Positions 21,721 to 43,646 of a stretch of DNA of 64,000 nt are shown here, piece after piece. The stretch comes from an archaeon (GTDB taxonomy: Archaea; Aenigmatarchaeota; Aenigmatarchaeia; GW2011-AR5). Each line of letters begins with the position of its first letter. The first letter of the stretch is position 1. The position numbers and the translations under genes are program-made. A model generated the notes under the pieces. It made no database searches, had not been told where the DNA came from, and was given only the letters and a program-made list of their open reading frames with translations. The stretch covers positions 2,771-66,770 of the forward strand of contig JANQNA010000006.1 of assembly GCA_028279825.1 (NCBI GenBank). The letters are read 5' to 3'.

Positions 21721-21726
21721 CCGACA

Positions 21727-21770: not shown

Positions 21771-21790
21771 GTAACTTATATATACCGCCT

Positions 21791-21829: not shown

Positions 21830-21843
21830 GAACTGGTAGTAAC

Positions 21844-23468: not shown

Positions 23469-23644
23469 TTGAAGAGAAAATAAAGAGCTGCCTGAAGAAA
23501 GGTGACAAGACAATAGAGGAAGTGTCAAAAGAACTCAAGATAAGTCGTCCTACTATATCAAAATATCTGCTGGTTCTGGAAATAAAGAAGAAGGTCAGTT
23601 ACAGGAACATAGGAAAAGCAAAGTTATTTACTCTTAAGCGTTAG
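23465..23644 (+). CDS. Small (59 aa) helix-turn-helix DNA-binding protein, not in the ORF track
   Basis: ATG at 23465 overlaps the upstream stop (ATGA). It encodes MIEEKIKSCLKKGDKTIEEVSKELKISRPTISKYLLVLEIKKKVSYRNIGKAKLFTLKR, a classic HTH (ISRPTISKYL) plus wing. Stop at 23642-23644. Confidence 0.5.
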   Translation: MIEEKIKSCLKKGDKTIEEVSKELKISRPTISKYLLVLEIKKKVSYRNIGKAKLFTLKR

Positions 23645-25915: not shown

Positions 25916-25972
25916 ATTAACGATTAACTTTAATGAATAAATTTATCAGGTAATATTAACGATTAACTTTAA
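25916..25972. promoter_or_regulatory. Direct repeat pair ATTAACGATTAACTTTAA (x2, 39 bp centre-to-centre) in the divergent intergenic region
   Basis: Exact 18-bp copies at 25916-25933 and 25955-25972. They lie between the 726-aa gene on the minus strand and the small 26001 ORF. Confidence 0.45.
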
Positions 25973-26000
25973 ATAGTGGGCTTCGACAAATTGAATCTAG

Positions 26001-26186
26001 ATGTCATTGAAAGAGAGAGTTTTATCTGCTATAGGCAAGGAGGCCACGCCTATCTACGTTGTGGCTAAAAAAGCCGGTACTTGCGTCACTACGACGTCAA
26101 AATACTGTTATATTCTTCAGGCTGAACACAAAATTGTCATGACCAGTTTTGGTAATATGAAGTTAGTCAGGAGGAAGGGCAAATGA
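26001..26186 (+). CDS. Small (61 aa) putative winged-helix protein translationally coupled to the giant gene
   Basis: MSLKERVLSAIGKEATPIYVVAKKAGTCVTTTSKYCYIL...MKLVRRKGK. Its size and layout resemble the 59-aa HTH at 23465. Its stop overlaps the start of the 3614-aa gene. Confidence 0.35.
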   Translation: MSLKERVLSAIGKEATPIYVVAKKAGTCVTTTSKYCYILQAEHKIVMTSFGNMKLVRRKGK

Positions 26187-29100
26187 CAAGATTCCTACCA
26201 GCAATCTTGATTGCTAGTTTATTGCTACTTATCACACCTCCTGTATTTGCAGTGCCTAACATAATAGATTTCCAAGGACGGTTGTTAGATAACAACAGGA
26301 ACCCGCAAGGCGGACAGTTCAACATGACGTTTTCTATTTTTAACGAGTCGACGTCCGGTTCTCTTCTATGGCAGGAAAACAAGCTCGTAAACGTCTCAAA
26401 TGGTTTGTTCACAGTGTTGCTTGGCGACACCATCGGGTTAAACCTAACGTTCAATGAGGACTATTATGTTGAGGTTATTGCAAACGGGGAAACATTTGCG
26501 CCACGCTATCGCGTGTCCACAGTTCCTTACGCTTACAGGTCACAGTACGCTTCAGCTGATAATACAAGTGAACCGTCTTTCATCTTTGAAAGATTCAGGA
26601 ACCAGACCAGTAATCTTACAGAATGGCAGAACGAGACGGGATTTACAATGGCATCTGTTGACAAATACGGCAGGTTTGTAGGCGACGGATCACTGTTGAC
26701 GGGCATAATTGCCGCTATCAATGATTCAACGACGGATCTGCCCGCTACAAACATAACACCCGGAACGTTTGGTATTCATTACCAGAACGGAAGCTATGCT
26801 TTTCCTGTTAACCTGAATGTTACACACAATCTGACGCTAGGCAATACAACCAATACGCTGAATATATACCGTGATGATGTTGGTAATTTTGTATTCTTCC
26901 CCAACAACAAGTCTGTTATTTTTCCCGGCAGATATGCTTCAGGCTTGCCTGCACTGAGTGCTGTAGCAATAGGTGCCAATGCAAGTGTTGCTACGACCCA
27001 TTCAATTGCTATTGGTACCGGTGCCACAGTCAGTAACGTTCTTCCGAGCTGTATAGTCATAGGAAGCGGTGCCGTTTGTACTGAGAACTACCAACTACTT
27101 TTGGGAGGTCCTGACACCTATATCAGAGAGGCATATATTGGCGGCGGGCCAACACGATTGAATCCTAATACAGTTACATTGCAAACTTCGGGTGGTATAG
27201 GCGGTTCCAACTATGGTGGTACTATTGTGCTGGCAGGCGGTAAAGCAACCGGAACAGGTGTGCCTGGTAGTGTTGTGTTCAAAGTATCGAACGGTACGGC
27301 ACCTTCTTCAACTTTGCAGGACCTGGTGGAAGTCGGCCGGTTCAACGGCTCAACAAGGTACTTTGGTATTGGCACGGCTGCAACTATAGCGCGTCTACAT
27401 GTTGCAGGTACAGAAAACCTGAATAATCTTTCTTTGAACGTTAATGATACTTTGTATGTGAACGGTTCAAGAGTCGGCATAATGACACCAAACCCTACGC
27501 ATGAACTGCATGTTGTTGGTGACGTGAATGTCACGGGAACAACATATCTGAGCACACTTTCAGTTACAAATCTAGACATACCAAACAACCTGTCCGTGGG
27601 TCGTAACTTCTCTGTCGGACCAAATACATTGTTTGTAGATCATTCAACAGCAAGAGTCGGTATTGGCACGGCTACGCCTGCAGAGGAACTGCATGTTATA
27701 GGTGACATTAATGTTACAGGTAATTATGCTCCTATAAATGTGGATGTAGTAAGAAGTGCTGTTAGTGCCGGTACATATCTGGACTTTGGATCCAATGTCA
27801 TTGACGTTTACGCGTCTGGTGGACTACAGATAAATACTGGAAATATCGAGTTCTATTCTGGTACTCGCGTACCTTTATCAATAACACCTGGAAGTGCTGA
27901 TGGTGTTCCATCAACCATATCAAGTGGTTACGATCAAACAGGCTGGTATCATCCATTACACTATAGATCTGGTGTTCTGGACGGTGCAACAGCCATAGCA
28001 CACATAATTAACACTACAGGCAATCTAACTACAGAAGGTGCAAAATTGGTTTCCGTACAAAATAACGGTACGGAGAAGTTCTTCATAGACAAAGACGGGG
28101 ATACATGGTTCAATGGATACCTAAACGTTACGGGTGACGTCAACACGACAGGTAATGTTTGTTTATCAGATGGAACGTGTTTGAGTGATTTAGGAGCGGC
28201 GGCCGGCGGCTGGACGGATGACGGAGATGTTGTGAGACTGACGACAGTGGCCGACATGGTTGGTATCGGCACGACGAATCCTTTGGCTAAATTGAACATA
28301 CAAGGTGTAAATGATACAACAGGATTGTCTTTGAATGTTAACAATACTTTGTATGTTAACGGAACGAATGTCGGTATCGGAACTGGTAATCCACAGAGAC
28401 CTATACATGCTACTGAAAATGTTGATGGTACTACAGGAGCTTGGTTTTTGAATCCTAGTACAGGAACGTCTGCATTGTCTGCAGTTCTTGTGGGAGATTC
28501 TACTGCTGGTGGCAATTATGGATATTTGGGTCACTTTGGAGAAAATTATGCAGATGCCGGGTTAATTGTTGCCAATCGTACAATATTGGTTGGATCAGAT
28601 ACTGCAGGACTTGTAATAGTCTCAAATGCAGCTTCGATGATCTTTGCAACTGGTGGCACTGCTGCATCAAATGAAAGAATGAGAATAACAGCAAATGGGG
28701 ATATAGGTATTGGAACAACAAATCCTTCAGATAAGCTTCACGTAAACGGGTTTATACAGACGGAAGTTGTAGATTGGACTCTAAAGAAAGAGTTTACCGG
28801 TGCCAATGATACTGTCAGAGATCTGGAAGTGTACAATGGTAAACTGTATGCCGGTATGGGTACAGATTTAGAAGAGGGAGATTTGTTTGTGTTTAACGGC
28901 ACGGACTGGGCGCTTGAGTATGATTTTGGCGGTGATTATGCAAGGGTTGAAGCAATGGAAGTCTACGAAAACAAACTTTACGTGGGTCTTGGAAACGATT
29001 CACTTACGCAGGGTGGATTAGCTGATATTTATTTCTATAATGGCACGCACTGGGTTTTGTCTACGGATTTAGGTGCTGAATATGAAAGCGTGTGGTCGCT

Positions 29101-32100
29101 GCAGGTTTATAATGGAAAACTTTATGCAGGTACAGGAACCACAGACGGTGACGGTGACATCTGGGAGTTTGACGGATCAACCTGGTCACTTTCATACAAC
29201 CTTACAGGTTATCAATACGCCTATCCTATGGCTACATACAATGGTAAGTTGTATGTTGGAATGGGCTATGGTGCGGATGATGGTGATGTCTACTCGTTTG
29301 ACGGATCAACCTGGTCACTTGCTTATGACTTTGGAGCTCAATATGAGACAATCTATTCTCTGGGCGTGCATGACGGCAAACTGTATGCCGGTACTGGTTA
29401 CAGCGGCGGTGACGCAGCGATATATGTGTACGATGGGTCTTCCTGGAAATTGTCCCAGTCACTTTCTCCGTATAATGGGGTATACTCTCTAAGGAGTTAC
29501 AACGGAAGAATGTATGCCGGTCTTGGACAGGACGCAGGTGAGGGTGACGTATACGTCCTGATAGACGGCAACTGGACACAAGCTGCTGATCTTGGTGCAG
29601 CATATGAACAGGCATGGGATATGGAAGTTTACAATGGAAAGCTTTATGTTGGAACAGGCAGTGGTGCCGACGATGCTGATATTTTTGCTTACTCAGAGCG
29701 TTTAGAGTCCCAATTAACGGAGGATCTTGGCGAAAGATTTGAAAAGTTTGTGACAACTTCACAACACTTTACTGATAATGTGTCTATACTGGGCATCCTG
29801 AATGTTACAGGTAACACCTACCTGAGTAATCTTACGATAGAGGGCATTGCCATGGCAAATGGCGACATGACTGTGTCCGGCAATCTTTCTGTGTTGAAGA
29901 ATTTTTCTGTCGGTCCTAACAACCTGTTTGTTGATAATTCAACAGGAAGGGTTGGCATAGGAACCGCTACACCGTCTTCTGCTTTGGAGGTTTCAGGCAA
30001 TATAACGATTACACAAGACGCATTTTTCATTGGCAATCGTGCACAGGCAACAGGACAGGATTCAATAGCAATAGGAAACATTGTCAATGCAACTGGTTTG
30101 CAATCGATAGCAATTGGAAAAGGTGCCAATTCAAGCAATGACAGAACAATAGCAATTGGAGTAAATTCAAAAGCTGCCGGACAACGGGCATTAGCAATAG
30201 GCTGGAATAGTGAAGTATCCGGTGATTATGGTACTGCTCTGGGAACTGATTCATTTGTCAATACTGATGGCACAGCAATTGGTCTTGGATCACAGGCTAC
30301 GAGTGGTAGCGGAGTTGCAGTTGGAAGATCAACGTATGCCGGTAATTCTGCTACTGCACTTGGAAGAGCAGCCAACGCAAGCGGTAGTTATTCTGTGGCT
30401 ATTGGTTACACTGCAAATACAACTACGGATGCTTCTGAGTCTATAGCCATAGGCCTGAAATCAATGGCCGATGCTTCATATGCTGTGGTTGTGGGTTCCA
30501 GGGCAAATGCAACCTCGAATAATGCTATTGCAATTGGTTACAAATCTAACTCTAGCAATACAGATACAATTGCTATAGGTGAAAATGCAAGGTCGACAGG
30601 CGTACAGTCTATAGCTATAGGCAGTGATGCACAAGCGACAGATACCGGGGCAATTTCTATAGGTGATGATACTGAAACAAGTGGTGACGGAAGTATAGCA
30701 ATAGGTGATAACGCATGGACTAACACAAATATTGCCGATGCGATAGCAATAGGAAGAAATTCAAACGTATCAACCAGATTTGCAATCGCTATAGGCGGTG
30801 GGTCATACGCAGGTCCACAAGCTTCAATAGCTTTGGGTTACGGTGCCTCTGCCTCGGTAATAAATTCAGTTGCCGTTGGAGAAGGTGCATTAGCTACGGG
30901 ATCCGCAAGCAGTGGAACTGCCATAGGAACCGATTCGATTGTTACCGGTGCATCTTCATTTGCAGCCGGTGCCAGTGCACAGGCAGGTACACGCGGAATA
31001 GCAATAGGAAATTTGGCAAACGCTTCGAGTAGCACTAACATGATTGCTATCGGATACATGTCAAAAACTAACCAACCAGATGCGATTGCATTTGGTCATT
31101 TGGCAAATGCATTTAATGACAGAGCAATAGCAATAGGAATGACGGCAAATGCAACCAATTCTGATGTAATTGCAATAGGTTCATATACAAATGCAAGTGG
31201 TCAGGATTCGATAAGTATTGGTCAGGATGCACAGGCAAGTAATACCGACGCAATGGCAATGGGCAGACAAGCACATGCAAATGATACCGATTCAATTGCA
31301 TTGGGTAGAGGTGCAGTTGTGTATGAAGCACAGGCCATAGCAATAGGAACAAGTGCTTTTGTTGATGACTGGGGAACAGGCGAGGGAGGTCTTGCCATTG
31401 GTTACAATGCAAGAGATTACGGTGGCGGCGGCGTTGCGATAGGTCATGATGCATTTATTGGTGAAACAGATTCACAGTCAATTGCAATAGGTAAATCTTC
31501 TAATGCAACCGGGTTGTACTCTCTGGCTATCGGCGCTAGTTCACTTTCGACAAATCAGCTATCTGTTGCTGTTGGATATAACTCTTTGACTCATGGTAAC
31601 AGCGCGACTGCCTATGGTGATTCTGCTTCAGCTGCAGCAGAAGGATTTGCAGCTGGTGCCTCTGCAGATGCTTTTGGTGGTCAAAGCGTTGCAGTGGGAC
31701 GATCTTCTAACTCCTCAGGTCAATTTTCCACTGCTGTTGGATATCAGGCAAGAGCATGGAATAGCAGAGGAATAACAATAGGGCAGGGTGCTAATTCGTA
31801 CGGAGACTCTGGTATTGCAATAGGTAATGTGGCCAATTCAACTAACGGATATTCGATAGCAATCGGAAGAGATTCTGAGGCACTGGCAGAGAGTGCAATA
31901 GCAATCGGGGGTGGTTCTGGCAACGGAGCAAGGGCAACTGATTTGGATGCAATTGCTATGGGACGAAACAGTGAGGCATCACAGGACAACGCAATTGCTA
32001 TAGGTGAGAATGCTAATGCAAGTGATCAGGACACAATAGCTATAGGCCAATATGCAAGGGCATCACAGGCAAATGCAATTGCTATAGGCGAGAATGCCAA

Positions 32101-35100
32101 TGCCACTACAAATGCAGTGGCAATAGGATTTGATGCAATAGCTACTGATCTTGGTGCGATATCCATAGGCGACGATGCTTATACAACCGGTGACGGTAGC
32201 ATAGCAATAGGTGACGGTGCCTGGACTGAAACGGGTATTGCCGATGCGATAGCCATAGGCGACGGTTCAAATGTATCTACAAGGTTTGGTATTTCAATTG
32301 GCAGCGGGTCATTAGCAGTTGCACAAGCTTCAATAGCATTGGGATATACCGCCGAGGCGGAGAACACTAATACTATTGTTATAGGGAACGGCGCAGCCGC
32401 GAGGGGAACGTCTACAAGCGGTATTGCAGTTGGTATTGATTCGTTAGTTACTGGTGCAAGTGGAATTGCAATGGGAGATCGTTCAAATGCCGGTCGCTAT
32501 GCGGTGGCTATAGGACTATTGGCTAACTCTACCGGTGCAAACAGCGCAATTGCGGTAGGATATAGCTCAAAGGCTGATGATCCGGATGCAGTGGCAATCG
32601 GACACAATTCAAATGCACTACAAGACAGAGCAATAGCAATAGGAATGACAGCCAATGCAACCGCTGGTGATTCAATAGCAATTGGCTCTTATACAAATGC
32701 CACGAATTCCGGTTCCGTGGCCCTTGGCCGTGATGCCCAGACCACAGCAGACAACCAGTTAGTAATTGGCAGCCCAAGCTATAATTTGAATACATTGATA
32801 CATGGTTCATTGAACGTCACGGGTGATGTGAATGTTACTAGTGATTATGATTTTTGTATTGACGGCGGTAATTGTCTTAGCAATTTTGCTGACGCTGGAA
32901 ATGTAACAAGCAATGGCTCAGCTGGCTACATACCTGTGTTCACGAACGCTACCAATATCGGCAACAGTATAATGACTGAAGTTCAGGGTGCTATATCGAT
33001 AGACGGCAACCTGAGCATGCCTGGTGCATTCTATATCGGGAACGGTGCGGCTGCCATAGGTAGTGATGCACTGGCTGTCGGTAATAGTGCAACATCTGAA
33101 AATACTTCTACAATAGCAATTGGCGAACTTGCAAACGCGAGCGGTTTGTATTCTACAGCTATAGGCTACAATGCAAGAGCTACACAGAGTGCTGCATTGG
33201 CAATAGGTTCGCCTTATCCATCCGGACAAACCAGAGCCACAGGTACTTATGCAATAGCGATAGGAAACGCACCCGAGGCCCCTGACACCAGTTCAATTGC
33301 TATAGGTACCAGCGCAAACGCAACTGGTACTTACACTGTTGCGATAGGACATAGTGCACAAACGATGGGAGGCAGTCTTGACAGGGCTGTTGCGATTGGG
33401 TATGATACATACGCAGAAGGTTCTGGTGCACTGGCACTTGGATATGAGGCAAGATCAAATGTTGGATATGGGATTGCAATGGGTATGCGTAGTGTTGCAA
33501 ATGGTGCAGGAACCGCAATTGGCTGGAATGCTGATGCTGGTGGAGCTTCATCTGTAGCACTTGGTGGATATGTCCCTAATGCAAGTGCAAATGATGCTAT
33601 AGCAATAGGCTCTTATGTTAATGCAAGCGCTGTTGATACAATTGCAATGGGTCATTTTGCAAGGGCAACACAAACCAATGCAATTGCAATTGGTGAGGAA
33701 GCAAATGCAGCTGGTACTCAGGATATTGCAATTGGTTATCAGGCTGAGAGTCTGGCTAATTATGGTGTTTCAATAGGTTACAATGCTTCTGTGGCTAATA
33801 GCGGTGTTGCTTATGGTACCAGTGCTACGGCTGCCGGCGCCAGTGACACAGGCCTTGGAAGAGCGACAATGGCTGCCGGTGGTAATTCTGTTGCTGTAGG
33901 CTTCCAGGCACAGTCAATTGGAGGAAATTCCGTATCTATTGGCTACAACGCTGACGCAAATGGAACTGATTCAATAATGTTGGGCAGAAGTGCAAGTGCA
34001 ACAGGTGATTATGCTGTTGGAATGGGTGCGATTGCAACTGCAACTTCTGATTATGGCATAGCCTTGGGATATGATGCAAATTCAAGCGGTCTGGATGCAA
34101 TAGCCATAGGTCAAGGTACTGTGGCGTTCCTGGGAAATGCAATAGCCATAGGCAAGGATGCCAATGCAAACAATTCAAATGCTCTTGCGATTATGGTTGA
34201 TGCTGACGCGACTGCTGCTGATACAATTGCTATAGGTCAAAATTCAAAGTCATTAGATAGCTATTCTATATCAATAGGAAATAATGCTAAATCTTTGAAC
34301 CAGAACTCAATAACGATGGGACGTAATGCATTTTCAAGTGGCGGCTCTTCATTGTCAATAGGCAATGCTGCTAATGCCTCTGGTGGATATGGTATTGCAA
34401 TTGGAACGCTTGCAAATGCTTCTCATGATGATAGCGTATGTATTGGATTTAACTGCCAGACAACAGCAAACAATCAATTCATGGTTGGGGCTGGCACGGA
34501 CCCATTGAGTTTGAACGTGACAGGTGATATAAATGTAACGGCCGGTTATGATGTTTGCATTGATGGAGGAAGCTGTTTGAGCACGGGCGGCGGCAGTGGA
34601 AACACAAGCGGTACCGGAGCAGCTGGTTACATACCTCAATGGCAGGACCATGACACTTTGAATAATTCAATCATGTTCCAGGAAGGAACTTACATAGGCA
34701 TAAACACCACAACTCCTGGGTCACCATTGCATGTTGTCCAGGAGGGATTGGACGACATACTTACAATAGGTGCTTACGTAAACACGTATACATGGAACAA
34801 TCTTGTCTTCGAAAGGAGTGGAACCAGTTATGCTTCACCTTCCCAGGTATCCAACGGGGCTAACCTGGCGAGAATTCTATTCAAAGGTTATGACGGTTCG
34901 AGCTATGACAATGCTGCTGCTATTTATGTGCAGGTTGATGGTGCTACAAGTACCAACGACATGCCTGGAAAGTTTGTGTTCTATACTTCAAGGGACGGAA
35001 CAAACTCGATACAACCCAGGATGGTGCTTGATAATATGGGAAGACTTGGTCTGGGTAATGTTAGTGAATATGCTACAAACTTCGACTCCAACTTCACCGC

Positions 35101-37027
35101 AATGCTGCAAATAAACGGTACGAATCCCCAAAATAATCTGTCTTTGGATATTAACGAGATTCTGTACGTGAATTCTTCTTCCGGCTGGGTTGGTATTGGA
35201 GTGAGTGATCCTGGTCGTGGAGATGGTGACGATCCACAATTAACAACTGCAGGTCTTCATATAAAGAACCCTGTTTCTGGAAATGAATCAGCCATAGTCT
35301 TAGAGACCATTAACAGTTCGTGGAAGATACGTAATCTTGACAGGTGGGGACGCTTTTCAATTTCACAATTCTTCCCTGATGGAACCAGCGTAGCACCGTT
35401 TAAGATCTTCAACGGCACAAGTCATAATCAGTTTGTTATACAAGAAAACGGCACCGGTATCGGGACCAACAATCCTAAGGCCTGGCTACACGTTGACGGC
35501 ACAGATCTATACAATAATATTTCCCTGAACGTTAACGACACTCTGTATGTGAATGCATCTGCTTCAAGGGTTGGCATTGGAACAGCGAGCCCTGCTACTA
35601 TGCTGGATGTCAGATCTTCCAGCTCATCGGTAAACCCCGGTATAACCAGTACTAACGATGCCGGTGTGGCTTCTTACTTCTATACTGCCCGTTCCGGTCA
35701 TGCATGGTCCGGGAAGACTGTAATACAGAACAGCGGATCAAGTGATGTGTTTTTCAGTGGCAGCGGAAATGTTGGGGTGGGTGCACAAACTACAAATGCA
35801 AAACTTCATGTCAATGGAACATATTCTACGAGTGGATTGTCCCTGAACGTTAATGACACTTTGTATGTGAACAACTCAAGAGTTGGTATTGGAACCAGCA
35901 GTCCGGGTAATTTGTTCCACGTGAGTGCCGGTCCTTCCGGATCAATAACAAGTTTAGAAGTTTCAGATGATGATGGTACAGATCCGTATAATCTTAATCT
36001 TTACACTGATACTACATATCAAAGAATAATTATGCGTGGTCTTACCGGCACTCAACATCAGGCACTTGTGTTTTCAGATGGTTATGGATATAATACAATG
36101 TTTGGAATAAGTTCCAGCACTGATTCTGGAAGTACCTGGCTTCCTAAGTTTGTCTTACAACAACGCGGACTTGTAGGTATTGGAGCAACAAATCCAGAGG
36201 CATTGTTCCACGTAAATGGAACTGACCCATTCAATGGAAATCTTTCTCTAAATATCAACAACACTTTGTATGTGAATGCTTCCGGAAGAGTTGGTATTGG
36301 AACTTCAGATCCTGATGAAGAATTTGTGATTAGTACTTCATCGGTAAGCCCTGCAATAGAAATTGCAACAACAAGCACAACGAACAATCAAGAAAAAGGA
36401 AAAATAATTTTCTCATCAAATGACAATGATCTAGCGGAGATAAGGGCATACAGAGTAAACAGTACTAATGGTGAGCTTAGGTTTAAGACCAGACAGGCAG
36501 GTACGTTAACCACACACATGGTCATAAATTCTTCCGGGAATGTGGGAATTGGAACTTTGAATCCTTCAATGGAATTGCATGTGAACGGTTCAGTGAACAT
36601 AACTGAAAATATTTTCTATGGCGGCAACCTGACTGGTTATGGGACTGACGTGGCTGAATATGTGAATGGTATAGGTGTTGAGCCTGGTGATGTTGTAATA
36701 ATTTCAGAGTATAGTGACGTAACTGTGGAGAAGACTGACGTAGCTTATGATACAAGAGCAGCCGGAATAGTCTCAACTGCACCTGGTCACACACTTGGTC
36801 TCGGAGAAGGTAACGTCAAGCTTGCGCTGGCAGGCAGAGTGCCTGTCAAGGTAACTACGGAAAACGGATCAATTAATCGTGGTGATTTGTTGACTACTTC
36901 CAGCACACCTGGACATGCTATGAGATGTGAGTCACGCTCTGCATGTACAGGATCAATAATTGGCAAGGCAATGGAGAACTTTTATGGTGATAACGGAGTC
37001 ATAACAGCATTGGTGGTACTAGGGTGA
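26183..37027 (+). CDS. Giant (3614 aa) secreted surface protein: signal peptide, repeated stalk modules, beta-propeller-like repeat block, about 1500-aa array of Hep_Hag (YadA-head-like) repeats, conserved C-terminal domain
   Basis: Uninterrupted 10.8-kb ORF. Signal peptide MTRFLPAILIASLLLLITPPVFA. At least 8 copies of the LSLNVNDTLYVNGSRVGIGTxxPxxxLHVxG module. Eleven 44-aa repeats YNGKLYAGTG...GDVYxFDGSxW (about 28820-29700). From about 30040 to 34480 there are continuous 14-15-aa AIAIGxxAxAxGxxS repeats. CIDGGxCLS disulfide-loop motifs occur. The C-terminal approx 130 aa run GTDVAEYVNG...GDLLTTSSTPGHAMR. N-x-S/T sequons are extremely dense. Confidence 0.85.
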   Translation: MTRFLPAILIASLLLLITPPVFAVPNIIDFQGRLLDNNRNPQGGQFNMTFSIFNESTSGSLLWQENKLVNVSNGLFTVLLGDTIGLNLTFNEDYYVEVIANGETFAPRYRVSTVPYAYRSQYASADNTSEPSFIFERFRNQTSNLTEWQNETGFTMASVDKYGRFVGDGSLLTGIIAAINDSTTDLPATNITPGTFGIHYQNGSYAFPVNLNVTHNLTLGNTTNTLNIYRDDVGNFVFFPNNKSVIFPGRYASGLPALSAVAIGANASVATTHSIAIGTGATVSNVLPSCIVIGSGAVCTENYQLLLGGPDTYIREAYIGGGPTRLNPNTVTLQTSGGIGGSNYGGTIVLAGGKATGTGVPGSVVFKVSNGTAPSSTLQDLVEVGRFNGSTRYFGIGTAATIARLHVAGTENLNNLSLNVNDTLYVNGSRVGIMTPNPTHELHVVGDVNVTGTTYLSTLSVTNLDIPNNLSVGRNFSVGPNTLFVDHSTARVGIGTATPAEELHVIGDINVTGNYAPINVDVVRSAVSAGTYLDFGSNVIDVYASGGLQINTGNIEFYSGTRVPLSITPGSADGVPSTISSGYDQTGWYHPLHYRSGVLDGATAIAHIINTTGNLTTEGAKLVSVQNNGTEKFFIDKDGDTWFNGYLNVTGDVNTTGNVCLSDGTCLSDLGAAAGGWTDDGDVVRLTTVADMVGIGTTNPLAKLNIQGVNDTTGLSLNVNNTLYVNGTNVGIGTGNPQRPIHATENVDGTTGAWFLNPSTGTSALSAVLVGDSTAGGNYGYLGHFGENYADAGLIVANRTILVGSDTAGLVIVSNAASMIFATGGTAASNERMRITANGDIGIGTTNPSDKLHVNGFIQTEVVDWTLKKEFTGANDTVRDLEVYNGKLYAGMGTDLEEGDLFVFNGTDWALEYDFGGDYARVEAMEVYENKLYVGLGNDSLTQGGLADIYFYNGTHWVLSTDLGAEYESVWSLQVYNGKLYAGTGTTDGDGDIWEFDGSTWSLSYNLTGYQYAYPMATYNGKLYVGMGYGADDGDVYSFDGSTWSLAYDFGAQYETIYSLGVHDGKLYAGTGYSGGDAAIYVYDGSSWKLSQSLSPYNGVYSLRSYNGRMYAGLGQDAGEGDVYVLIDGNWTQAADLGAAYEQAWDMEVYNGKLYVGTGSGADDADIFAYSERLESQLTEDLGERFEKFVTTSQHFTDNVSILGILNVTGNTYLSNLTIEGIAMANGDMTVSGNLSVLKNFSVGPNNLFVDNSTGRVGIGTATPSSALEVSGNITITQDAFFIGNRAQATGQDSIAIGNIVNATGLQSIAIGKGANSSNDRTIAIGVNSKAAGQRALAIGWNSEVSGDYGTALGTDSFVNTDGTAIGLGSQATSGSGVAVGRSTYAGNSATALGRAANASGSYSVAIGYTANTTTDASESIAIGLKSMADASYAVVVGSRANATSNNAIAIGYKSNSSNTDTIAIGENARSTGVQSIAIGSDAQATDTGAISIGDDTETSGDGSIAIGDNAWTNTNIADAIAIGRNSNVSTRFAIAIGGGSYAGPQASIALGYGASASVINSVAVGEGALATGSASSGTAIGTDSIVTGASSFAAGASAQAGTRGIAIGNLANASSSTNMIAIGYMSKTNQPDAIAFGHLANAFNDRAIAIGMTANATNSDVIAIGSYTNASGQDSISIGQDAQASNTDAMAMGRQAHANDTDSIALGRGAVVYEAQAIAIGTSAFVDDWGTGEGGLAIGYNARDYGGGGVAIGHDAFIGETDSQSIAIGKSSNATGLYSLAIGASSLSTNQLSVAVGYNSLTHGNSATAYGDSASAAAEGFAAGASADAFGGQSVAVGRSSNSSGQFSTAVGYQARAWNSRGITIGQGANSYGDSGIAIGNVANSTNGYSIAIGRDSEALAESAIAIGGGSGNGARATDLDAIAMGRNSEASQDNAIAIGENANASDQDTIAIGQYARASQANAIAIGENANATTNAVAIGFDAIATDLGAISIGDDAYTTGDGSIAIGDGAWTETGIADAIAIGDGSNVSTRFGISIGSGSLAVAQASIALGYTAEAENTNTIVIGNGAAARGTSTSGIAVGIDSLVTGASGIAMGDRSNAGRYAVAIGLLANSTGANSAIAVGYSSKADDPDAVAIGHNSNALQDRAIAIGMTANATAGDSIAIGSYTNATNSGSVALGRDAQTTADNQLVIGSPSYNLNTLIHGSLNVTGDVNVTSDYDFCIDGGNCLSNFADAGNVTSNGSAGYIPVFTNATNIGNSIMTEVQGAISIDGNLSMPGAFYIGNGAAAIGSDALAVGNSATSENTSTIAIGELANASGLYSTAIGYNARATQSAALAIGSPYPSGQTRATGTYAIAIGNAPEAPDTSSIAIGTSANATGTYTVAIGHSAQTMGGSLDRAVAIGYDTYAEGSGALALGYEARSNVGYGIAMGMRSVANGAGTAIGWNADAGGASSVALGGYVPNASANDAIAIGSYVNASAVDTIAMGHFARATQTNAIAIGEEANAAGTQDIAIGYQAESLANYGVSIGYNASVANSGVAYGTSATAAGASDTGLGRATMAAGGNSVAVGFQAQSIGGNSVSIGYNADANGTDSIMLGRSASATGDYAVGMGAIATATSDYGIALGYDANSSGLDAIAIGQGTVAFLGNAIAIGKDANANNSNALAIMVDADATAADTIAIGQNSKSLDSYSISIGNNAKSLNQNSITMGRNAFSSGGSSLSIGNAANASGGYGIAIGTLANASHDDSVCIGFNCQTTANNQFMVGAGTDPLSLNVTGDINVTAGYDVCIDGGSCLSTGGGSGNTSGTGAAGYIPQWQDHDTLNNSIMFQEGTYIGINTTTPGSPLHVVQEGLDDILTIGAYVNTYTWNNLVFERSGTSYASPSQVSNGANLARILFKGYDGSSYDNAAAIYVQVDGATSTNDMPGKFVFYTSRDGTNSIQPRMVLDNMGRLGLGNVSEYATNFDSNFTAMLQINGTNPQNNLSLDINEILYVNSSSGWVGIGVSDPGRGDGDDPQLTTAGLHIKNPVSGNESAIVLETINSSWKIRNLDRWGRFSISQFFPDGTSVAPFKIFNGTSHNQFVIQENGTGIGTNNPKAWLHVDGTDLYNNISLNVNDTLYVNASASRVGIGTASPATMLDVRSSSSSVNPGITSTNDAGVASYFYTARSGHAWSGKTVIQNSGSSDVFFSGSGNVGVGAQTTNAKLHVNGTYSTSGLSLNVNDTLYVNNSRVGIGTSSPGNLFHVSAGPSGSITSLEVSDDDGTDPYNLNLYTDTTYQRIIMRGLTGTQHQALVFSDGYGYNTMFGISSSTDSGSTWLPKFVLQQRGLVGIGATNPEALFHVNGTDPFNGNLSLNINNTLYVNASGRVGIGTSDPDEEFVISTSSVSPAIEIATTSTTNNQEKGKIIFSSNDNDLAEIRAYRVNSTNGELRFKTRQAGTLTTHMVINSSGNVGIGTLNPSMELHVNGSVNITENIFYGGNLTGYGTDVAEYVNGIGVEPGDVVIISEYSDVTVEKTDVAYDTRAAGIVSTAPGHTLGLGEGNVKLALAGRVPVKVTTENGSINRGDLLTTSSTPGHAMRCESRSACTGSIIGKAMENFYGDNGVITALVVLG
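30040..34480 (+). repeat. Codon-level tandem repeat array (about 100 units of 42-45 bp) encoding Hep_Hag-like AIAIG motifs inside the giant gene
   Basis: Recurrent gcaatagg(n)/attgcaatagg strings encode SIAIGxxAxAxGxxSIAIG. The repeats are in-frame and degenerate, so this is a coding array and not a CRISPR array. Confidence 0.8.
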
Positions 37028-38832
37028 TATATAATCTCAAAAGAAACAGTGTCGTTGTTATATGCCTGATATATCTAGTTTTTGTTCTAGCTATTCCTGT
37101 ACTTGCTGAGTCCAATATTAATATAACAGGATCTATGTATGTTGCCAATGACCTGAATGTTACGGGAAATATATACGGGAGTATATTTGGCGATGGATTC
37201 GTTTTTGGGAATTATACTGTTTCACAGGATCTTACCGTAGGTACGGACATATTTGTTGTTGATACATCGAATGGACGTGTTGGTATCAATCTTACAAGTC
37301 CCGGTGAGGCGTTACAAATAAACGGAAGCATCAATGTGACAGGAGACGTTTGTATAGATGATGGAGCATGCTTGAGCAATGTAACCGGCACCAGCGGGGG
37401 ATGGTTTGATGCAGGTTCAGTGATCGAGTTATCTACTGATACTGATGACCTGAACGCTACGACACTTCTGGTCAATAATACCCTTGGTATGGTCGGAATA
37501 AACACCGTTCCTAACAATACTTTACATGTGAAGGGAGATATACTGCAGACAGTCAATACGCCTTATATCGTTGGTAGTGTTACCGATTCAAATTTTCTGG
37601 ACGGTGCTTCCGGCGTTTATGTTCAGAGTAAATATGCTTATGTTGCAGCTTCTTTGGATGATCGCCTGACCATTGTTGATATTGGTACTCCTTCAAATCC
37701 CAATATTGTCGGCAGTGTTTATGATGTTGCACTGAATTCTGCCAGGGGTGTGCATGTTGTTGGTAAATATGCATACGTCGTATCACAATATAACGATTCA
37801 CTGGTCATCATAGATGTTTCGAACGCTTCAAATCCCGTGATTGTTGGTACTGTTGCAGATAACAGCTTTCTCAACTTCTCAAGCGATGTTTATGTTTCTG
37901 GCAGGTATGCATACGTGGCGGCTACTACAAATAATACTATAGTAGTAATTGATGTTGGAAACCCTTCGGATCCATTTATTACAGGAACAATTGAGGACTC
38001 TTCAAATCTCAACTATCCAAGAAGAGTTTATACACAGGGAAGATATGCTTACGTTGCAAGTCAGCTTAGTGACAGCATGACAATAATTGATGTCAGTGAT
38101 GTGACAAATCCTGTGATCGTTGGTAATGTTACTGATACAGGGCTTGACTATGCCAGTGATGTTTATGTTTCAGGAGGCTATGCCTACGTTACGTCTTATA
38201 ATAACGACAGTCTTAACGTAATCAATGTTACTGATCCATCAAATCCCAATATTGTCGGTAATGTAAGTGATGTAAGACTTGATGGTGCCTGGTCTGTGAA
38301 AGTTATGGGAAAGTATGCATACGTTGTATCTTATGATAATGATTCACTGACGGTCATAGATGTAAGCGACTCAAGTGATCCCGTTATTGTTGCAAGTATA
38401 ACAGATATAAAATTAGAATCCGGTTACGGCATTGACGTTAGCGGCAAATACGCATATGTTGCGACGGATGCGAATGATAGTTTAACAGTTCTGGAAATTC
38501 CAGGTATTGATGCACCCACAGCTTCTATCGGATCTGTTGAGTCAAATCGATTACATGTGACAGAAAACATAGTTATTGGCAATGATGCTTATGCCGGCGG
38601 TGTGGCAGTTGGCGGCGGCACTATGGTAGACGGTGCGGCAAGCCTTGATAACCGCACGATAACAGTTACCGAAACGGGAAAGGTTGGTATAAATAACACA
38701 AACCCTGCACAGAGCCTTGACATTGTTGGAAACCTCAATGTTTCTGGTAACGGTTCAGATCCTTACATTTATTTTGCTTATGGAGGTTACATCCATGACA
38801 ATGGCACTCACATTGTCATAGGACACTGGTGA
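37024..38832 (+). CDS. LVIVD-repeat beta-propeller surface protein (paralog A, 602 aa)
   Basis: N-terminal anchor/signal (VVVICLIYLVFVLAIPVLA). A stalk module with GRVGINLTSPGEALQINGSINVTGDVCIDDGACLS. About 10 repeats of about 43 aa with the LxIxDxSxPxxPxIVG signature (LTIVDIGTPSNPNIVG, LVIIDVSNASNPVIVG...). Conserved C-terminus ...YIYFAYGGYIHDNGTHIVIGHW. Confidence 0.8.
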   Translation: MIYNLKRNSVVVICLIYLVFVLAIPVLAESNINITGSMYVANDLNVTGNIYGSIFGDGFVFGNYTVSQDLTVGTDIFVVDTSNGRVGINLTSPGEALQINGSINVTGDVCIDDGACLSNVTGTSGGWFDAGSVIELSTDTDDLNATTLLVNNTLGMVGINTVPNNTLHVKGDILQTVNTPYIVGSVTDSNFLDGASGVYVQSKYAYVAASLDDRLTIVDIGTPSNPNIVGSVYDVALNSARGVHVVGKYAYVVSQYNDSLVIIDVSNASNPVIVGTVADNSFLNFSSDVYVSGRYAYVAATTNNTIVVIDVGNPSDPFITGTIEDSSNLNYPRRVYTQGRYAYVASQLSDSMTIIDVSDVTNPVIVGNVTDTGLDYASDVYVSGGYAYVTSYNNDSLNVINVTDPSNPNIVGNVSDVRLDGAWSVKVMGKYAYVVSYDNDSLTVIDVSDSSDPVIVASITDIKLESGYGIDVSGKYAYVATDANDSLTVLEIPGIDAPTASIGSVESNRLHVTENIVIGNDAYAGGVAVGGGTMVDGAASLDNRTITVTETGKVGINNTNPAQSLDIVGNLNVSGNGSDPYIYFAYGGYIHDNGTHIVIGHW

Positions 38833-38836
38833 TAGT

Positions 38837-41800
38837 ATGAAATATATTATTCCGATTGTTATGATGACAATCTTAGTTACTGTTAGTCCTGTTTTTGCTG
38901 CTGAGGGTGATGAAGATACAACAAACTGGAACTTATCATACTCCAATGGTACAGCTGATGAGGTCAGAGCCATTGTTATTGATAGTAATAACAACGTCTA
39001 TATTGCGGGCCATTTGGGACAGGGGGCTGCAACACTTAATTGGACTATCAAAAAATTTAATTCTTCTGGTGCGGAGGATGCAGAAAACTGGAGTATAAGT
39101 TTTGGATATCCTTCGAGTAATAGACTTGAAGACGCAACGATAGACAATGATGGCAATTTGTATTTTGTTGGATCTTTTATAATCACCGGTGACCGGGATG
39201 CTATAATAAAAAAATACTATCCTAACGGTACAGAAATAGTGACAGGATGGAACAAGACTTTCATTGGTAGTGATTCTGCTGATGATGAAATGCAGGCTGT
39301 GGCCATCGACAGTAATAACAATGTTTATGTGGGTGGTTTTGGAAATGATCTGGTTAGTGGTAGCAGTGGTTATGACTGGTGGATCAAGAAGTTTTCTTCT
39401 GACGGTACGGAGGATACAAGCAATTGGAACAAGACATATGATAGAGGTGCCGTTGATGTTGTCAGCAAAATAGCTATAGACAGCGAAGACAATGTATTCG
39501 TTGTTGGTTATGGGGAAGACTTAGCAGGTGCCAGTACTAATCAGGACTGGTGGATCAAGAAGTTTTCTTCTGACGGTACGGAAAATATGTCTTGGAATAA
39601 GAATTTTACCGGTAATGATGCTACTGCCAATAATGATGCTTCTTATGATGTTGCAATTGATTGTGAGGATAGTGTATATGTTGTTGGCGTTGGAGACGAT
39701 CTAATTAGTGCAAGTTCCAACATGGATGCATGGGTCAAGAAATTCTTTAAGAACGGCACGGAGGACTATACCTGGAACAAAACATTTGAATACGAAGCCG
39801 ATGAGGATACTGCTTTTAGTGTAGCTGTTGACTTATCGGGTGATGTTTACGTTGGTACATATGCAGACAATGTGGTTGACGCTACCTCTAACACAGACTG
39901 GTGGATCAAGAAATATTCTTCAGACGGCATAGAGGATGCTGATAACTGGAATTTGACATTTACTACCGGTGCTGGAACTCGGACATCTTATCTCTATGCA
40001 ATTGAATCTGATAACAGTAACAGTGTTTATGCTGGTGGTTATGGTGTTGGTGCAACAGGAACTACTAACCCTGACTGGTGGATCAAGAAGTTTGAGGGAG
40101 GTCCTATAGATCCGTTGTGTGTATATGGTCGTTCCAACATAAACATTACTGGATCTTCAACTTTTGGTGTTGACGTAAATGTTACTGGTAGAATCTATGA
40201 ACCTAAATTCGGTAACAGTTATGTTCCTGGAAATTTTGATATTACACAAAATCTTTCTGTAGGTTCCAATACTTTATTTGTTGACGTTCTGAACGGAAGG
40301 GTCGGGATAGGGATAACACCTACGGTGACTCTCTACGTGGACGGAGACATTAACGTTACTGCAGATGTTTGTATTGATGGGAGCAGCTGTTTAGGCACCG
40401 GTATTATTGGAGAAGGTATATGGTACGACAACGGTGCGGAAGTCAAATTAAATACAAGCACTGATGATTTAAACGCCACGACACTTTTCGTGAATAACAC
40501 TCTGGAAATGGTTGGAATAAACACTGTTCCCAACAAAACTTTGCATGTAAAAGGGTATATATTGCAAACGGTTACAACTAATGCAAGTATTGTAGGCAGG
40601 ATAGAGAGCTCAAACCTGGACCAAATCTATAATGTTTATGTTCAAGACAGATATGCATATACTGTTACAAATGTCGGCAGGGTTGGTATTATTGACATTA
40701 CAGATAAAACCAACCCTAGTTTTGTCGGTACGTTGTATGATGTAAACAAACTAAATGGCGGCAAATCAATCCAGGTAGTTGGAAAGTATGCCTATGTAGC
40801 TTCATCGACTGCAGATACATTGACCATAATAGATGTTTCTAATGCGTCAAAGCCTGTTGTTGTTGGAAATGTAACGGACGAGATAATTCTGAACGGTTCA
40901 TTTGGGTTATACGTAAGCGGCAAATACGCCTACATTGCCGCTCTGTATGGACAATTCGTGATAGTTGATATTTCAGATCCTGCAACCCCCACGATTGTTA
41001 GCAATATTTCAAAGACTGATGCCATAGGTGTTTATGTACAGGGAAAATACGCCTATCTTGGAACCAGGGGTACTAGTACATTTTCAGCTATAGACGTTTC
41101 AGATCCTTTAAATCCCCGGATTGTTGGTGAAGTATCTGATGCAGCTTATCTTAACGGTAGTACGGGTATCTATGTAAGCGGCAAATACGCCTACGTTGCG
41201 TCTTATTACAAACCTGCAAGTACTGATTATCTGACAATTCTTAATGTCAGCAACCCCAGCAATCCTCATATTGTAGGTACTTATACACAAACTGGTATGG
41301 ATGGAGCTTTTGATGTTCAAGTTGCAGGCAAATACGCTTACCTTACAGCCTGGTACAATGACAGATTTTTTGTGTTTGATATCTCGGATCCGGAAAACCC
41401 TATAAAAGTATCAGAACTTCATGATTCCAATTTTCTGGACGGATCTAAGGCTTTGCATGTTGCAGGCAAATACGCCTACGTTGTAGCTTACGGCAATGAC
41501 AGTCTTGCGATTATTGATCTTGATGGAATAGATGCACCCACAGCTTCTATCGGGTCCGTTGAAGCAAATCAATTACATGTTACGGATAATATGCAGGTTA
41601 CCAATGATTTTTATGTTGGAAGCGGTCTAAATGTCGGTGGAAGTATAATTTCTGACGGACCTGCTGCTTTCACGAATGGCACAATATTCACAATAAATGG
41701 GACTGTAGGCATCAACAACACAAAACCAACTCAGGCTCTTGACGTTGCGGGAAACATAAATGTTAGCGGTAATGGCAGTTATCCATACATCTACTTTGGC

Positions 41801-41854
41801 AAAGGCGGATACATCTATGACAATGGTACACACACCATTGTGGGACATGATTGA
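38837..41854 (+). CDS. SBBP beta-propeller plus LVIVD beta-propeller surface protein (paralog B, 1005 aa)
   Basis: Signal MKYIIPIVMMTILVTVSPVFA. The N-terminal half has about 7 repeats with NNVYVxGxxxxxxxDWWIKKFSSDGTEDxxNWNKT (SBBP / PF06739-like). The middle carries the shared stalk module (ADVCIDGSSCLG). The C-terminal half is LVIVD repeats. It ends ...YIYFGKGGYIYDNGTHTIVGHD. Confidence 0.8.
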   Translation: MKYIIPIVMMTILVTVSPVFAAEGDEDTTNWNLSYSNGTADEVRAIVIDSNNNVYIAGHLGQGAATLNWTIKKFNSSGAEDAENWSISFGYPSSNRLEDATIDNDGNLYFVGSFIITGDRDAIIKKYYPNGTEIVTGWNKTFIGSDSADDEMQAVAIDSNNNVYVGGFGNDLVSGSSGYDWWIKKFSSDGTEDTSNWNKTYDRGAVDVVSKIAIDSEDNVFVVGYGEDLAGASTNQDWWIKKFSSDGTENMSWNKNFTGNDATANNDASYDVAIDCEDSVYVVGVGDDLISASSNMDAWVKKFFKNGTEDYTWNKTFEYEADEDTAFSVAVDLSGDVYVGTYADNVVDATSNTDWWIKKYSSDGIEDADNWNLTFTTGAGTRTSYLYAIESDNSNSVYAGGYGVGATGTTNPDWWIKKFEGGPIDPLCVYGRSNINITGSSTFGVDVNVTGRIYEPKFGNSYVPGNFDITQNLSVGSNTLFVDVLNGRVGIGITPTVTLYVDGDINVTADVCIDGSSCLGTGIIGEGIWYDNGAEVKLNTSTDDLNATTLFVNNTLEMVGINTVPNKTLHVKGYILQTVTTNASIVGRIESSNLDQIYNVYVQDRYAYTVTNVGRVGIIDITDKTNPSFVGTLYDVNKLNGGKSIQVVGKYAYVASSTADTLTIIDVSNASKPVVVGNVTDEIILNGSFGLYVSGKYAYIAALYGQFVIVDISDPATPTIVSNISKTDAIGVYVQGKYAYLGTRGTSTFSAIDVSDPLNPRIVGEVSDAAYLNGSTGIYVSGKYAYVASYYKPASTDYLTILNVSNPSNPHIVGTYTQTGMDGAFDVQVAGKYAYLTAWYNDRFFVFDISDPENPIKVSELHDSNFLDGSKALHVAGKYAYVVAYGNDSLAIIDLDGIDAPTASIGSVEANQLHVTDNMQVTNDFYVGSGLNVGGSIISDGPAAFTNGTIFTINGTVGINNTKPTQALDVAGNINVSGNGSYPYIYFGKGGYIYDNGTHTIVGHD

Positions 41855-41855
41855 T

Positions 41856-43646
41856 ATGAATAGTAAAATAATTTTTCTAATGGTCCTGCTTAGTGGCGTT
41901 GGCTTTGCGGTATCGGACATAAATATTACAGGCAGCTCGTTCATAGACGTAGATCTTAACGTTACCGGAAGGATTTCAGGAAAAATTGCCGCTACGGGTA
42001 TTTCAGGAAATCTGAGTATTGTAGAAAATCTCTCTGTGGGTTCTGGTACTTTATTTGTTGACGCTCTGAACGGAAGGGTCGGAATAGGAGCAATGCCTCT
42101 GACAACTTTGTACGTATCGGGTAATATCAATGTCACTAGCGGTAATGACATATGTATAGACAATTTGTATTGTCTTACTACTGCTAACATCAGTGCAGGT
42201 GGCTGGACTGATGAAGGCGCACTGGTAAGGTTAACGATGAGCACAGACGATATCAATGCCACAACATTATTTATCAACAATACTCTAAGAATGGTTGGAA
42301 TAAATACTGTTCCCAATGCTACGCTGCATGTAAGCGGTACTCTTTTACAAGACCCTAATAAAACAATGTCTGTTGTTGGAAGCGTTACGGACGGACCAAA
42401 AATGGAAAACGCCAGATCTCTTTATGTTCAGGGCAAATATGCATACGTGACGTCACAAACAAACGACAGTTTGACTATCATAGATATATCCGACCCAACA
42501 AATCCCGTAATTGTTGCCTACCATACAAATAGTACAGGGCTTGAACAGGCTGCTGATATTTTTGTCAAGGGCAAGTATGCTTACATTGCCGGTCTTGCAC
42601 GTGATGCTCTGAGTATAATAGACGTATCCAATGTTACAAACCCAAAAAAAGTGAGTGAGGTCAGAGATACTTCCAGGCTGGACGGAATTGCTTATCCTTA
42701 CATTTCTGGCAAATACGCCTACGTTGCCAGCTACTTGAATGACAGCTTATCCGTTATAGATATATCCGATCCGACTTCAGCATCTATAGTAGGGTACGTT
42801 ACAAATAGCACAGTTCTGGAGGGTGCTGTGGCTGTTAAGGTTCAAGGCAGCTATGCTTACGTAGCTTCTCAAAACAATGATTCTTTAACGATAATAGATG
42901 TGTCAAATCCGGCCGAACCTTTCATTGTCGGCAGTGTGACGGATCTAAGACTTGAGGTTGCATGGGATGTTTATGTATCAGGCGGATATGCTTATGTACC
43001 CGGCAGATATAACGATAGTCTGTGCATTATAAATGTGACGGATGTATCAAAACCTTCTATAATAGGTTTTATTGTTGACAGTTCTAATATCGAGGGAGCA
43101 ATTGGCGTTACCGTACAAGGCAATTATGCTTACTTGGCATCTATTGTTTCTGGCAGCCTTTCTGTTATTGACATCTCAGACAAGACAACACCAAGAATCA
43201 TATCCACTCTTTCAGAAACTGGATTGACTGGTGCTACGCGCGTCTTTGTATCTGGAAAATATGCATACGTTGTGGCAAACACTAATGACAGCTTAACTGT
43301 GGTGGACATTGTCGGTATAGATTCATCAACGGCTTCTATAGGAGCTTTGGAAAGTAGTACGGTTCATGTTATAGAGAACGCAAAAATTGGTAATGATGTT
43401 TATGTGACAGGTGGTCTAATGACTGATGGACTGAAGATTGACGGGCCTGTCAGCTTCATGAATGATACACTGATAACGACATCTGCCGGTAGAGTAGGAA
43501 TCAATAATACAAACCCAACACAGGTATTGGATGTTGGCGGTAACATTATGGTGAACGGATCAGGCGGAAACGATCCTTACATTTATTTCGGAAAGGGCGG
43601 ATACATATATGATAACGGAACAGATCTGGTGTTCGGACATGGATAA
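41856..43646 (+). CDS. LVIVD-repeat beta-propeller surface protein (paralog C). The start is reset to the ATG at 41856, immediately after the upstream stop.
   Basis: MNSKIIFLMVLLSGVGFAVS signal/anchor. Stalk module with ICIDNLYCLT. About 10 LVIVD repeats (LTIIDISDPTNPVIVA...). It ends YIYFGKGGYIYDNGTDLVFGHG. The track ORF from 41760 overlaps the previous gene and adds non-homologous residues. Confidence 0.8.
   Translation: MNSKIIFLMVLLSGVGFAVSDINITGSSFIDVDLNVTGRISGKIAATGISGNLSIVENLSVGSGTLFVDALNGRVGIGAMPLTTLYVSGNINVTSGNDICIDNLYCLTTANISAGGWTDEGALVRLTMSTDDINATTLFINNTLRMVGINTVPNATLHVSGTLLQDPNKTMSVVGSVTDGPKMENARSLYVQGKYAYVTSQTNDSLTIIDISDPTNPVIVAYHTNSTGLEQAADIFVKGKYAYIAGLARDALSIIDVSNVTNPKKVSEVRDTSRLDGIAYPYISGKYAYVASYLNDSLSVIDISDPTSASIVGYVTNSTVLEGAVAVKVQGSYAYVASQNNDSLTIIDVSNPAEPFIVGSVTDLRLEVAWDVYVSGGYAYVPGRYNDSLCIINVTDVSKPSIIGFIVDSSNIEGAIGVTVQGNYAYLASIVSGSLSVIDISDKTTPRIISTLSETGLTGATRVFVSGKYAYVVANTNDSLTVVDIVGIDSSTASIGALESSTVHVIENAKIGNDVYVTGGLMTDGLKIDGPVSFMNDTLITTSAGRVGINNTNPTQVLDVGGNIMVNGSGGNDPYIYFGKGGYIYDNGTDLVFGHG

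Follow-up and report, generated by a model that had tools for sequence, protein, structure and literature searches.

A giant modular protein of an Aenigmatarchaeota archaeon with YadA-head-like repeats and a phage gp12-type C-terminal domain: a candidate secreted cell-surface fibre

In this article, I discuss a giant gene on a 64,000-nucleotide stretch of archaeal DNA (GenBank assembly GCA_028279825.1, contig JANQNA010000006.1, positions 2,771 to 66,770 of the forward strand; hereafter the window, to which all coordinates refer), whose product of 3614 residues combines long arrays of YadA-head repeats with stalk modules, a beta-propeller and a C-terminal domain that very probably is homologous to the autochaperone domain of phage phi29 gp12. 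An initial annotation had proposed a host-contact fibre; its observations turn out to be largely right and its interpretation sound but incomplete, and the main value added here lies in the assembly domain, a very large unnamed family and a conserved operon with LVIVD proteins. How the DPANN archaea (Diapherotrites, Parvarchaeota, Aenigmarchaeota, Nanoarchaeota, Nanohaloarchaeota) hold onto their hosts is largely unknown, and a genome study of the Aenigmarchaeota lists no candidate contact structures other than S-layers, archaella and pili (PMC8407114); the giant gene provides a specific candidate that can be tested, for which both an assembly mechanism and a cleavage site are predicted. The features of the protein and its immediate neighbours are collected in Table 1.

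Table 1. Features of the giant gene and its adjoining genes; aa, amino acid residues of the giant protein unless stated otherwise, and a slash marks a predicted cut.
Feature	Window position	Strand	Basis or remark
Upstream ORF, 61 aa	26001..26186	+	called as gene in Logan assembly
Giant protein	26183..37027	+	read as protomer of secreted fibre
Signal peptide, aa 1-23 (MTRFLPAILIASLLLLITPPVFA/VP), predicted	26183..26251	+	Kyte-Doolittle scan
N-terminal 'base' domain, aa 24-135 (IDFQGRL...PRYRVSTVPYA)	26252..26587	+	recurrence in relatives
Mini YadA-like array, aa 255-310, ends NYQLLLGG	26945..27112	+	weak YadA_head match, E = 0.0025
First stalk region, aa 400-880, LNVNDTLYVN / GIGTxxPxxxLHV modules, one Cys-loop connector (C660/C666)	27380..28822	+	
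Seven-bladed beta-propeller, aa 881-1190, 7 x about 44 aa (YNGKLYAGT...DG..W)	28823..29752	+	repeats (aa 884-1190) and AF2 model
YadA-head-like array 1, aa 1294-2200, about 65 turns of 14 residues	30062..32782	+	Pfam, NCBIfam, PDB
Connector 1, aa 2201-2288 (...LNVTGDVNVT..FCIDGGNCLS...), Cys loop, 88 aa	32783..33046	+	
YadA-head-like array 2, aa 2289-2770, about 34 turns, ends ANNQFMVG	33047..34492	+	Pfam, NCBIfam
Connector 2 (C2792/C2798) and second stalk region, aa 2771-3488, four LNVNDTLYVN modules, globular inserts	34493..36646	+	
Cys-loop modules, aa 660-666, 2225-2231, 2792-2798	28160-28180, 32855-32875, 34556-34576		
Predicted autoproteolysis site, Thr3488/Asp3489 (GYGT/DVAEY)	36644..36649	+	aligned to gp12 S691/D692
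C-terminal domain, aa 3489-3614, beta-barrel, very probably homologous to phi29 gp12 autochaperone (D4)	36647..37024	+	
Three LVIVD propeller proteins (602, 1005 and 628 aa) followed by an SBBP protein (495 aa)	37024..45096	+	co-oriented, downstream

As the initial annotation had it, the gene is a single uninterrupted 10.8-kb open reading frame (ORF), with one stop in its own frame, the terminal one, versus 241 and 273 in the other two, and a GGAGG stands 9-10 nt 5' of its ATG. The exact protein is recorded at NCBI and in the Logan assembly of run SRR20820740, which shows no difference from the window over 14,845 nt, the two having possibly been built from the same reads. The window also carries a series of archaeal hallmarks, namely TFB, geranylgeranylglyceryl phosphate (GGGP) synthase, glycerol-1-phosphate (G1P) dehydrogenase, Hel308 and a FlaI/FlaH/FlaJ-like ATPase set of archaellum or pilus type, together with polyprenyl synthases and a prepilin peptidase, and the named close relatives of its Hel308 (52-71% identity) are all Candidatus Aenigmatarchaeota; no tRNA gene was found in the window. 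Judged from these sequences, with the taxon assigned from the relatives of Hel308, the giant gene belongs to a member of the Aenigmatarchaeota, within the DPANN, a tiny and probably host-dependent archaeon. It is scarcely credible that we are dealing instead with a bacterial trimeric autotransporter brought in by contamination or mis-binning, or with an assembly artefact that inflated the array: the best named matches of the repeats are indeed bacterial autotransporters and short-read assemblies can mishandle repeats, but the gene shares its contig with the archaeal genes just listed, YadA_anchor and stalk domains were not found, and the second assembly is identical. Moreover, the longest exact DNA repeat inside the gene is 26 nt, the repeat copies are 60-78% identical to one another, and in the largest duplication, a super-repeat at an offset of 1506 nt in array 1, they are 70-74% identical, so that collapse or expansion of the repeats during assembly is unlikely. 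I have therefore rejected both readings.

The initial annotation had recognized about 100 AIAIG units as one Hep_Hag (YadA-head) array of roughly 1500 residues. Their identity is confirmed by Pfam YadA_head (PF05658), which matches the giant at E = 2.9e-110 in 20 stretches, and by comparison of the array sequence with the PDB, which retrieved YadA (1p9h) at 1.7e-10 and also the heads of BpaC, AtaA, EibD, 3s6l and BPSL1705, while the NCBIfam models of the EmaA, YadA and Ata autotransporters match the arrays far under their own family cut-offs. The count stands as well, at 87 tandem 14-residue xIAIG units with a strict pattern and about 99 by length, but there are two arrays with a connector between them, plus a mini-array, and array 1 in turn comprises two halves (aa 1302-1698 and 1829-2200) that are 47% identical, before it terminates in ADNQLVIG. 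All solved structures of the YadA-head type are known as obligate trimers, and since the repeats of the giant match solved autotransporter heads, its arrays are likely to form a left-handed beta-roll of three chains and to serve in adhesion. Arrays of this length had also been called unusual in archaea, and a literature search yielded no paper connecting Hep_Hag or YadA repeats with archaea or DPANN; a comparable giant nevertheless exists in Nanoarchaeia (see below), and long Hep_Hag arrays are better described as rare, not unique, among the archaeal material examined. What they do demonstrate is that YadA-head repeats, normally bound to a type Vc anchor, can form long arrays that need another assembly route.

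A Cys-loop module, LNVTGDxNVT ... C[IL][SD][DG]G.CLS, recurs in the giant, with two copies directly behind a YadA-like array, and may be a counterpart of the 'neck' of autotransporter adhesins; connectors of the first type also follow the arrays of a Nanoarchaeia homologue (L008), and the twelve cysteines of the giant come as six close pairs. A candidate SLBB domain at aa 649-686 sits on one of these connectors and was dismissed as spurious (26.9 bits against a Pfam cut-off of 27).

The LNVNDTLYVN stalk modules described initially are also real, with six modules and eleven G[IVL][GM]TxxP motifs counted. The first stalk region matches the PHROG tail-fibre families phrog_9942 and phrog_18345, the second has PHROG tail-fibre matches of its own and related segments in two other loci (L014 and L042), and the stalk columns of the family profile match the solved Bdellovibrio fibres Bd2133 (E = 6.4e-4) and Bd1334 (E = 6.7e-3), whose crystallised shafts are trimeric beta-helices (PMC10769870); the stalk of the giant is presumably trimeric too. 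The 44-residue repeats next to the first stalk number seven and not eleven as had been reported, and their likeness to propeller blades is borne out by an AlphaFold2 (AF2) model, made with a 57-homologue alignment, that forms a closed propeller of 27 strands (predicted local distance difference test, pLDDT, 89.5; predicted template modelling score, pTM, 0.88). Foldseek placed this model with Kelch, WD40 and EPTP propellers (E down to 3.7e-11), a resemblance that is no more than generic and gives no clue to a ligand, and no Pfam propeller family matches the blade region. The propeller has 1226 homologues, often joined to LamG domains.

The C-terminal domain, already singled out as distinct and conserved, is a separate module, with 174 homologues in the first search and 45-75% identity across phyla, and it has no match in Pfam or NCBIfam and none to a named protein. 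Its model (pLDDT 94) shares the fold of the gp12 C-terminal fragment, the closest structural match being the cleaved phi29 fragment, and the profile alignment to gp12 starts exactly at Asp692, the first residue of that fragment (3gqh), with D3489-V-A-E3492 of the giant lying on D692-F-A-E695 of gp12. The D and E of this D-x-A-E are invariant in 86 homologues and likewise in a set of 27. Homology with the gp12 autochaperone domain can thus be held with considerable confidence, and the level of conservation would fit an assembly role better than a receptor-binding tip. The corresponding domain of phi29 gp12 and of the Dpo31 spike from a marine podovirus works as a trimeric 'autochaperone', which aids folding of the spike and is then removed (PMC3357383, PMC13317679, PMC4690869), and because it is removed there after folding and D-x-A-E aligns at the cut site, cleavage is predicted between Thr3488 and Asp3489; whether the archaeal protein is actually cut there is, in my estimate, an even bet.

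To place the giant in a wider context, relatives were searched with domain-sized queries, and species-representative genomes other than the window's own were scanned from a 13-sequence alignment, with a best match of 66%. The motif GDLLTTS[SGP]TP occurs at 484 loci in these genomes, distributed over DPANN (Aenigmatarchaeota, Nanoarchaeia, Woesearchaeota), metagenome-assembled genomes (MAGs) labelled Methanosarcinales and many bacterial phyla. In 80 loci from the genome scan that were read for architecture, the C-terminal domain is nearly always at the extreme C-terminus, and it closes tail-fibre-like proteins in 48 viral contigs. An exhaustive profile search returned 31,271 cluster representatives with E <= 0.001 as the limit, and 11,296 with E <= 1e-30, counted as clusters at 50% identity, and the top 150 of these representatives were read in the same way. 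Of the 80 loci, 21 have the N-terminal domain, for which there is no Pfam match, at their N-terminus directly behind the signal peptide, as do 79 of the 150 representatives. The family is therefore 'bookended': its two ends, the N-terminal base and the C-terminal domain, are conserved, and the modular shaft between them varies. This uncovers a very large family of some 31,000 clusters that lacks a Pfam model and links phage tail fibres with cellular fibres of bacteria and archaea.

A parallel among the archaea is the Nanoarchaeia MAG PL23a_bin.69, which encodes two family members. One is a giant of at least 3051 aa, running off the start of its contig, with several YadA-like arrays, GIGT stalks and the same C-terminal domain, and each of its arrays ends in an NQFMVG...CIDGGNC connector as in the window. 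The second (locus L004) has 2054 aa, and its gene overlaps by 4 nt with the first of the LVIVD genes behind it, whose proteins have 977, 600 and 851 aa. In the window, the first LVIVD gene likewise starts, at a GTG, in a 4-nt overlap with the stop codon of the giant, and the order of fibre then LVIVD gene (26183-43646 in the window, 4259-18960 in L004) is common to both; its retention in two DPANN lineages argues for a shared function.

Export of the giant is suggested by its signal peptide, the sole hydrophobic stretch on the Kyte-Doolittle scale, and by its enrichment in N-x-S/T sequons, of which there are 114 versus 56 +/- 6.4 in shuffled sequences (two-fold, z about 9), as would be expected of an exported archaeal glycoprotein. 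Both features speak against the giant being the tail fibre of an archaeal virus, whether integrated or co-assembled, a reading prompted by the matches of the stalk and C-terminal modules to phage tail-fibre families and by the occurrence of the C-terminal domain in viral contigs. No capsid, portal, terminase or integrase gene was found near the giant, the neighbours are cellular genes for pili, a helicase, lipids and surface proteins, and the operon of fibre and LVIVD genes recurs on another DPANN chromosome, so that a viral origin is highly unlikely and the provirus was set aside together with the contaminant and the artefact.

The reading I prefer, and consider likely, is that the giant is the protomer of a secreted, heavily N-glycosylated, homotrimeric and adhesive cell-surface fibre assembled from its C-terminus, and this reading is strengthened by the C-terminal domain being of the phi29 gp12 type, a trimerising autochaperone. 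In the mechanism that I infer, which extends to trimer formation, cleavage, orientation, anchoring and binding target, the chain would be exported by its N-terminal signal peptide, and the C-terminal 126-residue domain, emerging last, would trimerise and set the register so that three chains fold from the C-terminus backwards. The resulting shaft would combine stalk modules folded as triple beta-helices with the two long YadA-head-type arrays in left-handed beta-roll form, and three 7-bladed propellers would project from it. The chaperone domain would then probably be removed between Thr3488 and Asp3489, the conserved N-terminal domain would fix the base at the cell envelope, and the beta-roll arrays and propellers would offer extended adhesive surfaces with a length in the region of 100 nm, a rough figure for which 0.48 nm per turn and the dimensions of Bd2133 were used. 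The fibre would act with the LVIVD propeller proteins encoded directly downstream, and its target would most likely be a glycan-rich surface, whether of a host cell, of a particle or of the matrix of a biofilm.

Several observations pull in the other direction and have to be weighed against this fibre. Pfam Peptidase_G2 (PF11962), the family of the gp12 domain, does not match the giant at E <= 1 and matches 8 of 86 relatives only weakly (best E = 0.0021), and the family profile meets the gp12 sequence at a modest E = 0.0086. A search for a membrane anchor, a PGF-CTERM motif or a known S-layer-binding module in the giant found none, and the GH10 xylanase and LamG proteins of the window point to a polymer or particle just as much as to host binding. 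Cleavage of phi29 gp12 reportedly needs ATP, to which a secreted archaeal protein would have no access, and related beta-barrels are permanent capsid decoration proteins. In addition, the C-terminal domain is present inside the chain of many top-scoring family members, in 2-4 tandem copies that each have D-x-A-E and are followed by a long conserved tail, an arrangement at odds with a plain terminal chaperone that is shed; the tandem-copy proteins, drawn from the set P0366-P0515 (e.g., P0375, P0383 and P0443), have 1,000-5,800 aa, and two proteins of this set, P0443 and P0436, combine the N-terminal domain of the giant with VYNGKLYVGT-type blades.

An alternative is the same fibre with its C-terminal domain left uncleaved, as a permanent trimer clamp or distal tip comparable to capsid decoration or cement barrels. 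I regard this as possible, if doubtful, given that the invariant D-x-A-E coincides exactly with the gp12 cleavage site, that the nearest structural match is a cleaved fragment and, for a distal tip in particular, that such high conservation would be atypical of receptor binding. In favour of a purely structural element without a specific partner, for example a spacer, a sheath or a fibre of the matrix by which the envelope or a biofilm is given its shape, no domain with a defined ligand was found, and the very long uniform beta-roll arrays could be mainly rigid spacers. YadA-type heads and beta-propellers are, however, typical binding modules, the gene clusters with other surface proteins of binding type (LVIVD and LamG), and the related Bdellovibrio fibres bind prey glycans (PMC10769870), all of which makes a structural role without a partner unlikely.

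With the adhesive fibre as the preferred reading, a host-contact role in a DPANN archaeon is plausible, and host attachment as its specific role can be put forward tentatively. Speculative, too, is the proposal that fibre and LVIVD proteins together constitute a DPANN host-tethering device, for which an archaeal lineage would have adopted the assembly system of phage tail fibres, with its self-cleaving gp12-type chaperone, and joined it to bacterial-type YadA arrays, and that the ~31,000-cluster family represents a general, unnamed class of cell-surface fibres common to episymbiotic and predatory prokaryotes and their viruses.

Comparison with known systems helps to define what the giant is and is not. 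It shares the 14-residue PF05658 head repeats with YadA, BpaC, AtaA, EibD and EmaA, but a trimeric autotransporter (type Vc) was rejected since the defining C-terminal membrane anchor is missing: a Pfam scan of the whole protein returned only YadA_head and the sub-threshold SLBB, and no YadA_anchor, stalk or neck families. Unlike the autotransporters, with their 12-stranded beta-barrel anchor, coiled-coil stalk, neck and Gram-negative outer membrane, the giant has none of these and belongs to an archaeon without an outer membrane, and its arrays of about 65 and 34 turns are far longer than familiar autotransporter heads (the YadA head has about 9 turns). It probably relies on a phage-type C-terminal chaperone in place of the anchor. 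The C-terminal D4 domain of phi29 gp12 (Peptidase_G2 in MEROPS and Pfam), present also in Dpo31, is very probably the homologous counterpart, whereas the gp12 body is a beta-helix enzyme unrelated to the body of the giant, which is moreover secreted by a cell. In fibres with an S74 chaperone, such as the K1F endosialidase and T5 pb1, a C-terminal trimerising chaperone is self-released once the triple beta-helix has formed (PMC4690869), the same logic as proposed here with a different fold and motif, S74 using a Ser-Lys dyad and the giant D-x-A-E.

The mosaic adhesive trimer (MAT) fibres of Bdellovibrio bacteriovorus (Bd2133, Bd1334, Bd3182) come closer, as they are cell-encoded and phage-tail-fibre-like, with GNVGIGT-type shaft motifs and a conserved N-terminal domain as in the giant. 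Displayed on the cell surface as trimers, they have a modular shaft of beta-helices between an N-terminal domain that is invariant and C-terminal ends that can be exchanged, some with a self-cleaving chaperone (PMC10769870). Their chaperones are S74-type and that of the giant gp12-type, and MAT proteins have about 1000 aa and no reported YadA arrays in contrast to the 3614 aa of the archaeal protein, whose N-terminal 430 aa have no sequence match in the PDB. By analogy, the giant would work most like a phage tail fibre adopted by a cell, as in the MAT fibres. Other giant surface proteins of DPANN and candidate phyla radiation (CPR) microbes, such as the SPEARE proteins of Nanohaloarchaeota and the giants of Omnitrophota, are also very large, secreted, found in small host-associated cells and proposed to act in contact; SPEARE proteins contain protease, adhesion and nuclease domains, a content unlike that of the giant.

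Turning to the neighbourhood, the stop of the 61-aa ORF overlaps the ATG of the giant (ATGA), and this ORF, which has no Pfam match, resembles a small winged-helix protein in its sequence pattern and probably opens the operon. About 28 nt 5' of it there is a TATA-like TTTAAATA, and two copies of TTAACGATTAACTTTAA, about 39 nt apart, are found upstream of it (window 25918-26186) and could be a regulator binding site. Downstream of the giant, LamG proteins are encoded in addition to the LVIVD and SBBP proteins, and most of these surface proteins have a signal peptide and many sequons. The three LVIVD paralogues share a C-terminal motif, SGNGS.PYIYF..GGYI.DNGT....GH, and the stalk and connector motifs of the giant reappear in the 602-aa and 1005-aa members (37276-37422 and 40328-40393). 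By coordinate arithmetic, the Logan contig carrying the giant stops at about window position 39403, within the 1005-aa LVIVD gene, and the window genes from 46.5 kb on are on another Logan contig; this short-read assembly breaks at the LVIVD paralogues and not at the giant gene.

An archaellum or type IV pilus-like set lies just upstream of the fibre island and comprises two FlaJ/T2SSF-like proteins as well as a FlaI-like ATPase and a protein of KaiC/FlaH type; the window also encodes the prepilin peptidase and weak pilin/archaellin-like ORFs (17703-23468, 11545-12339 and 54354-56440 for all of these together). A short exosortase/archaeosortase-like protein (197 aa, 5721-6314) is also encoded, and the giant is probably not its substrate because it has no sorting signal of the PGF-CTERM type. 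A 726-aa protein transcribed divergently from the reverse strand (23624-25804) is a further surface protein of the same island; it has a signal peptide, bacterial Ig-like domains and, at its C-terminus, a transmembrane anchor that carries a basic tail. Finally, a 1104-aa protein on the reverse strand (60491-63805) contains two GH10 (xylanase) stretches and hints that the organism or its partnership handles plant-type polysaccharides.
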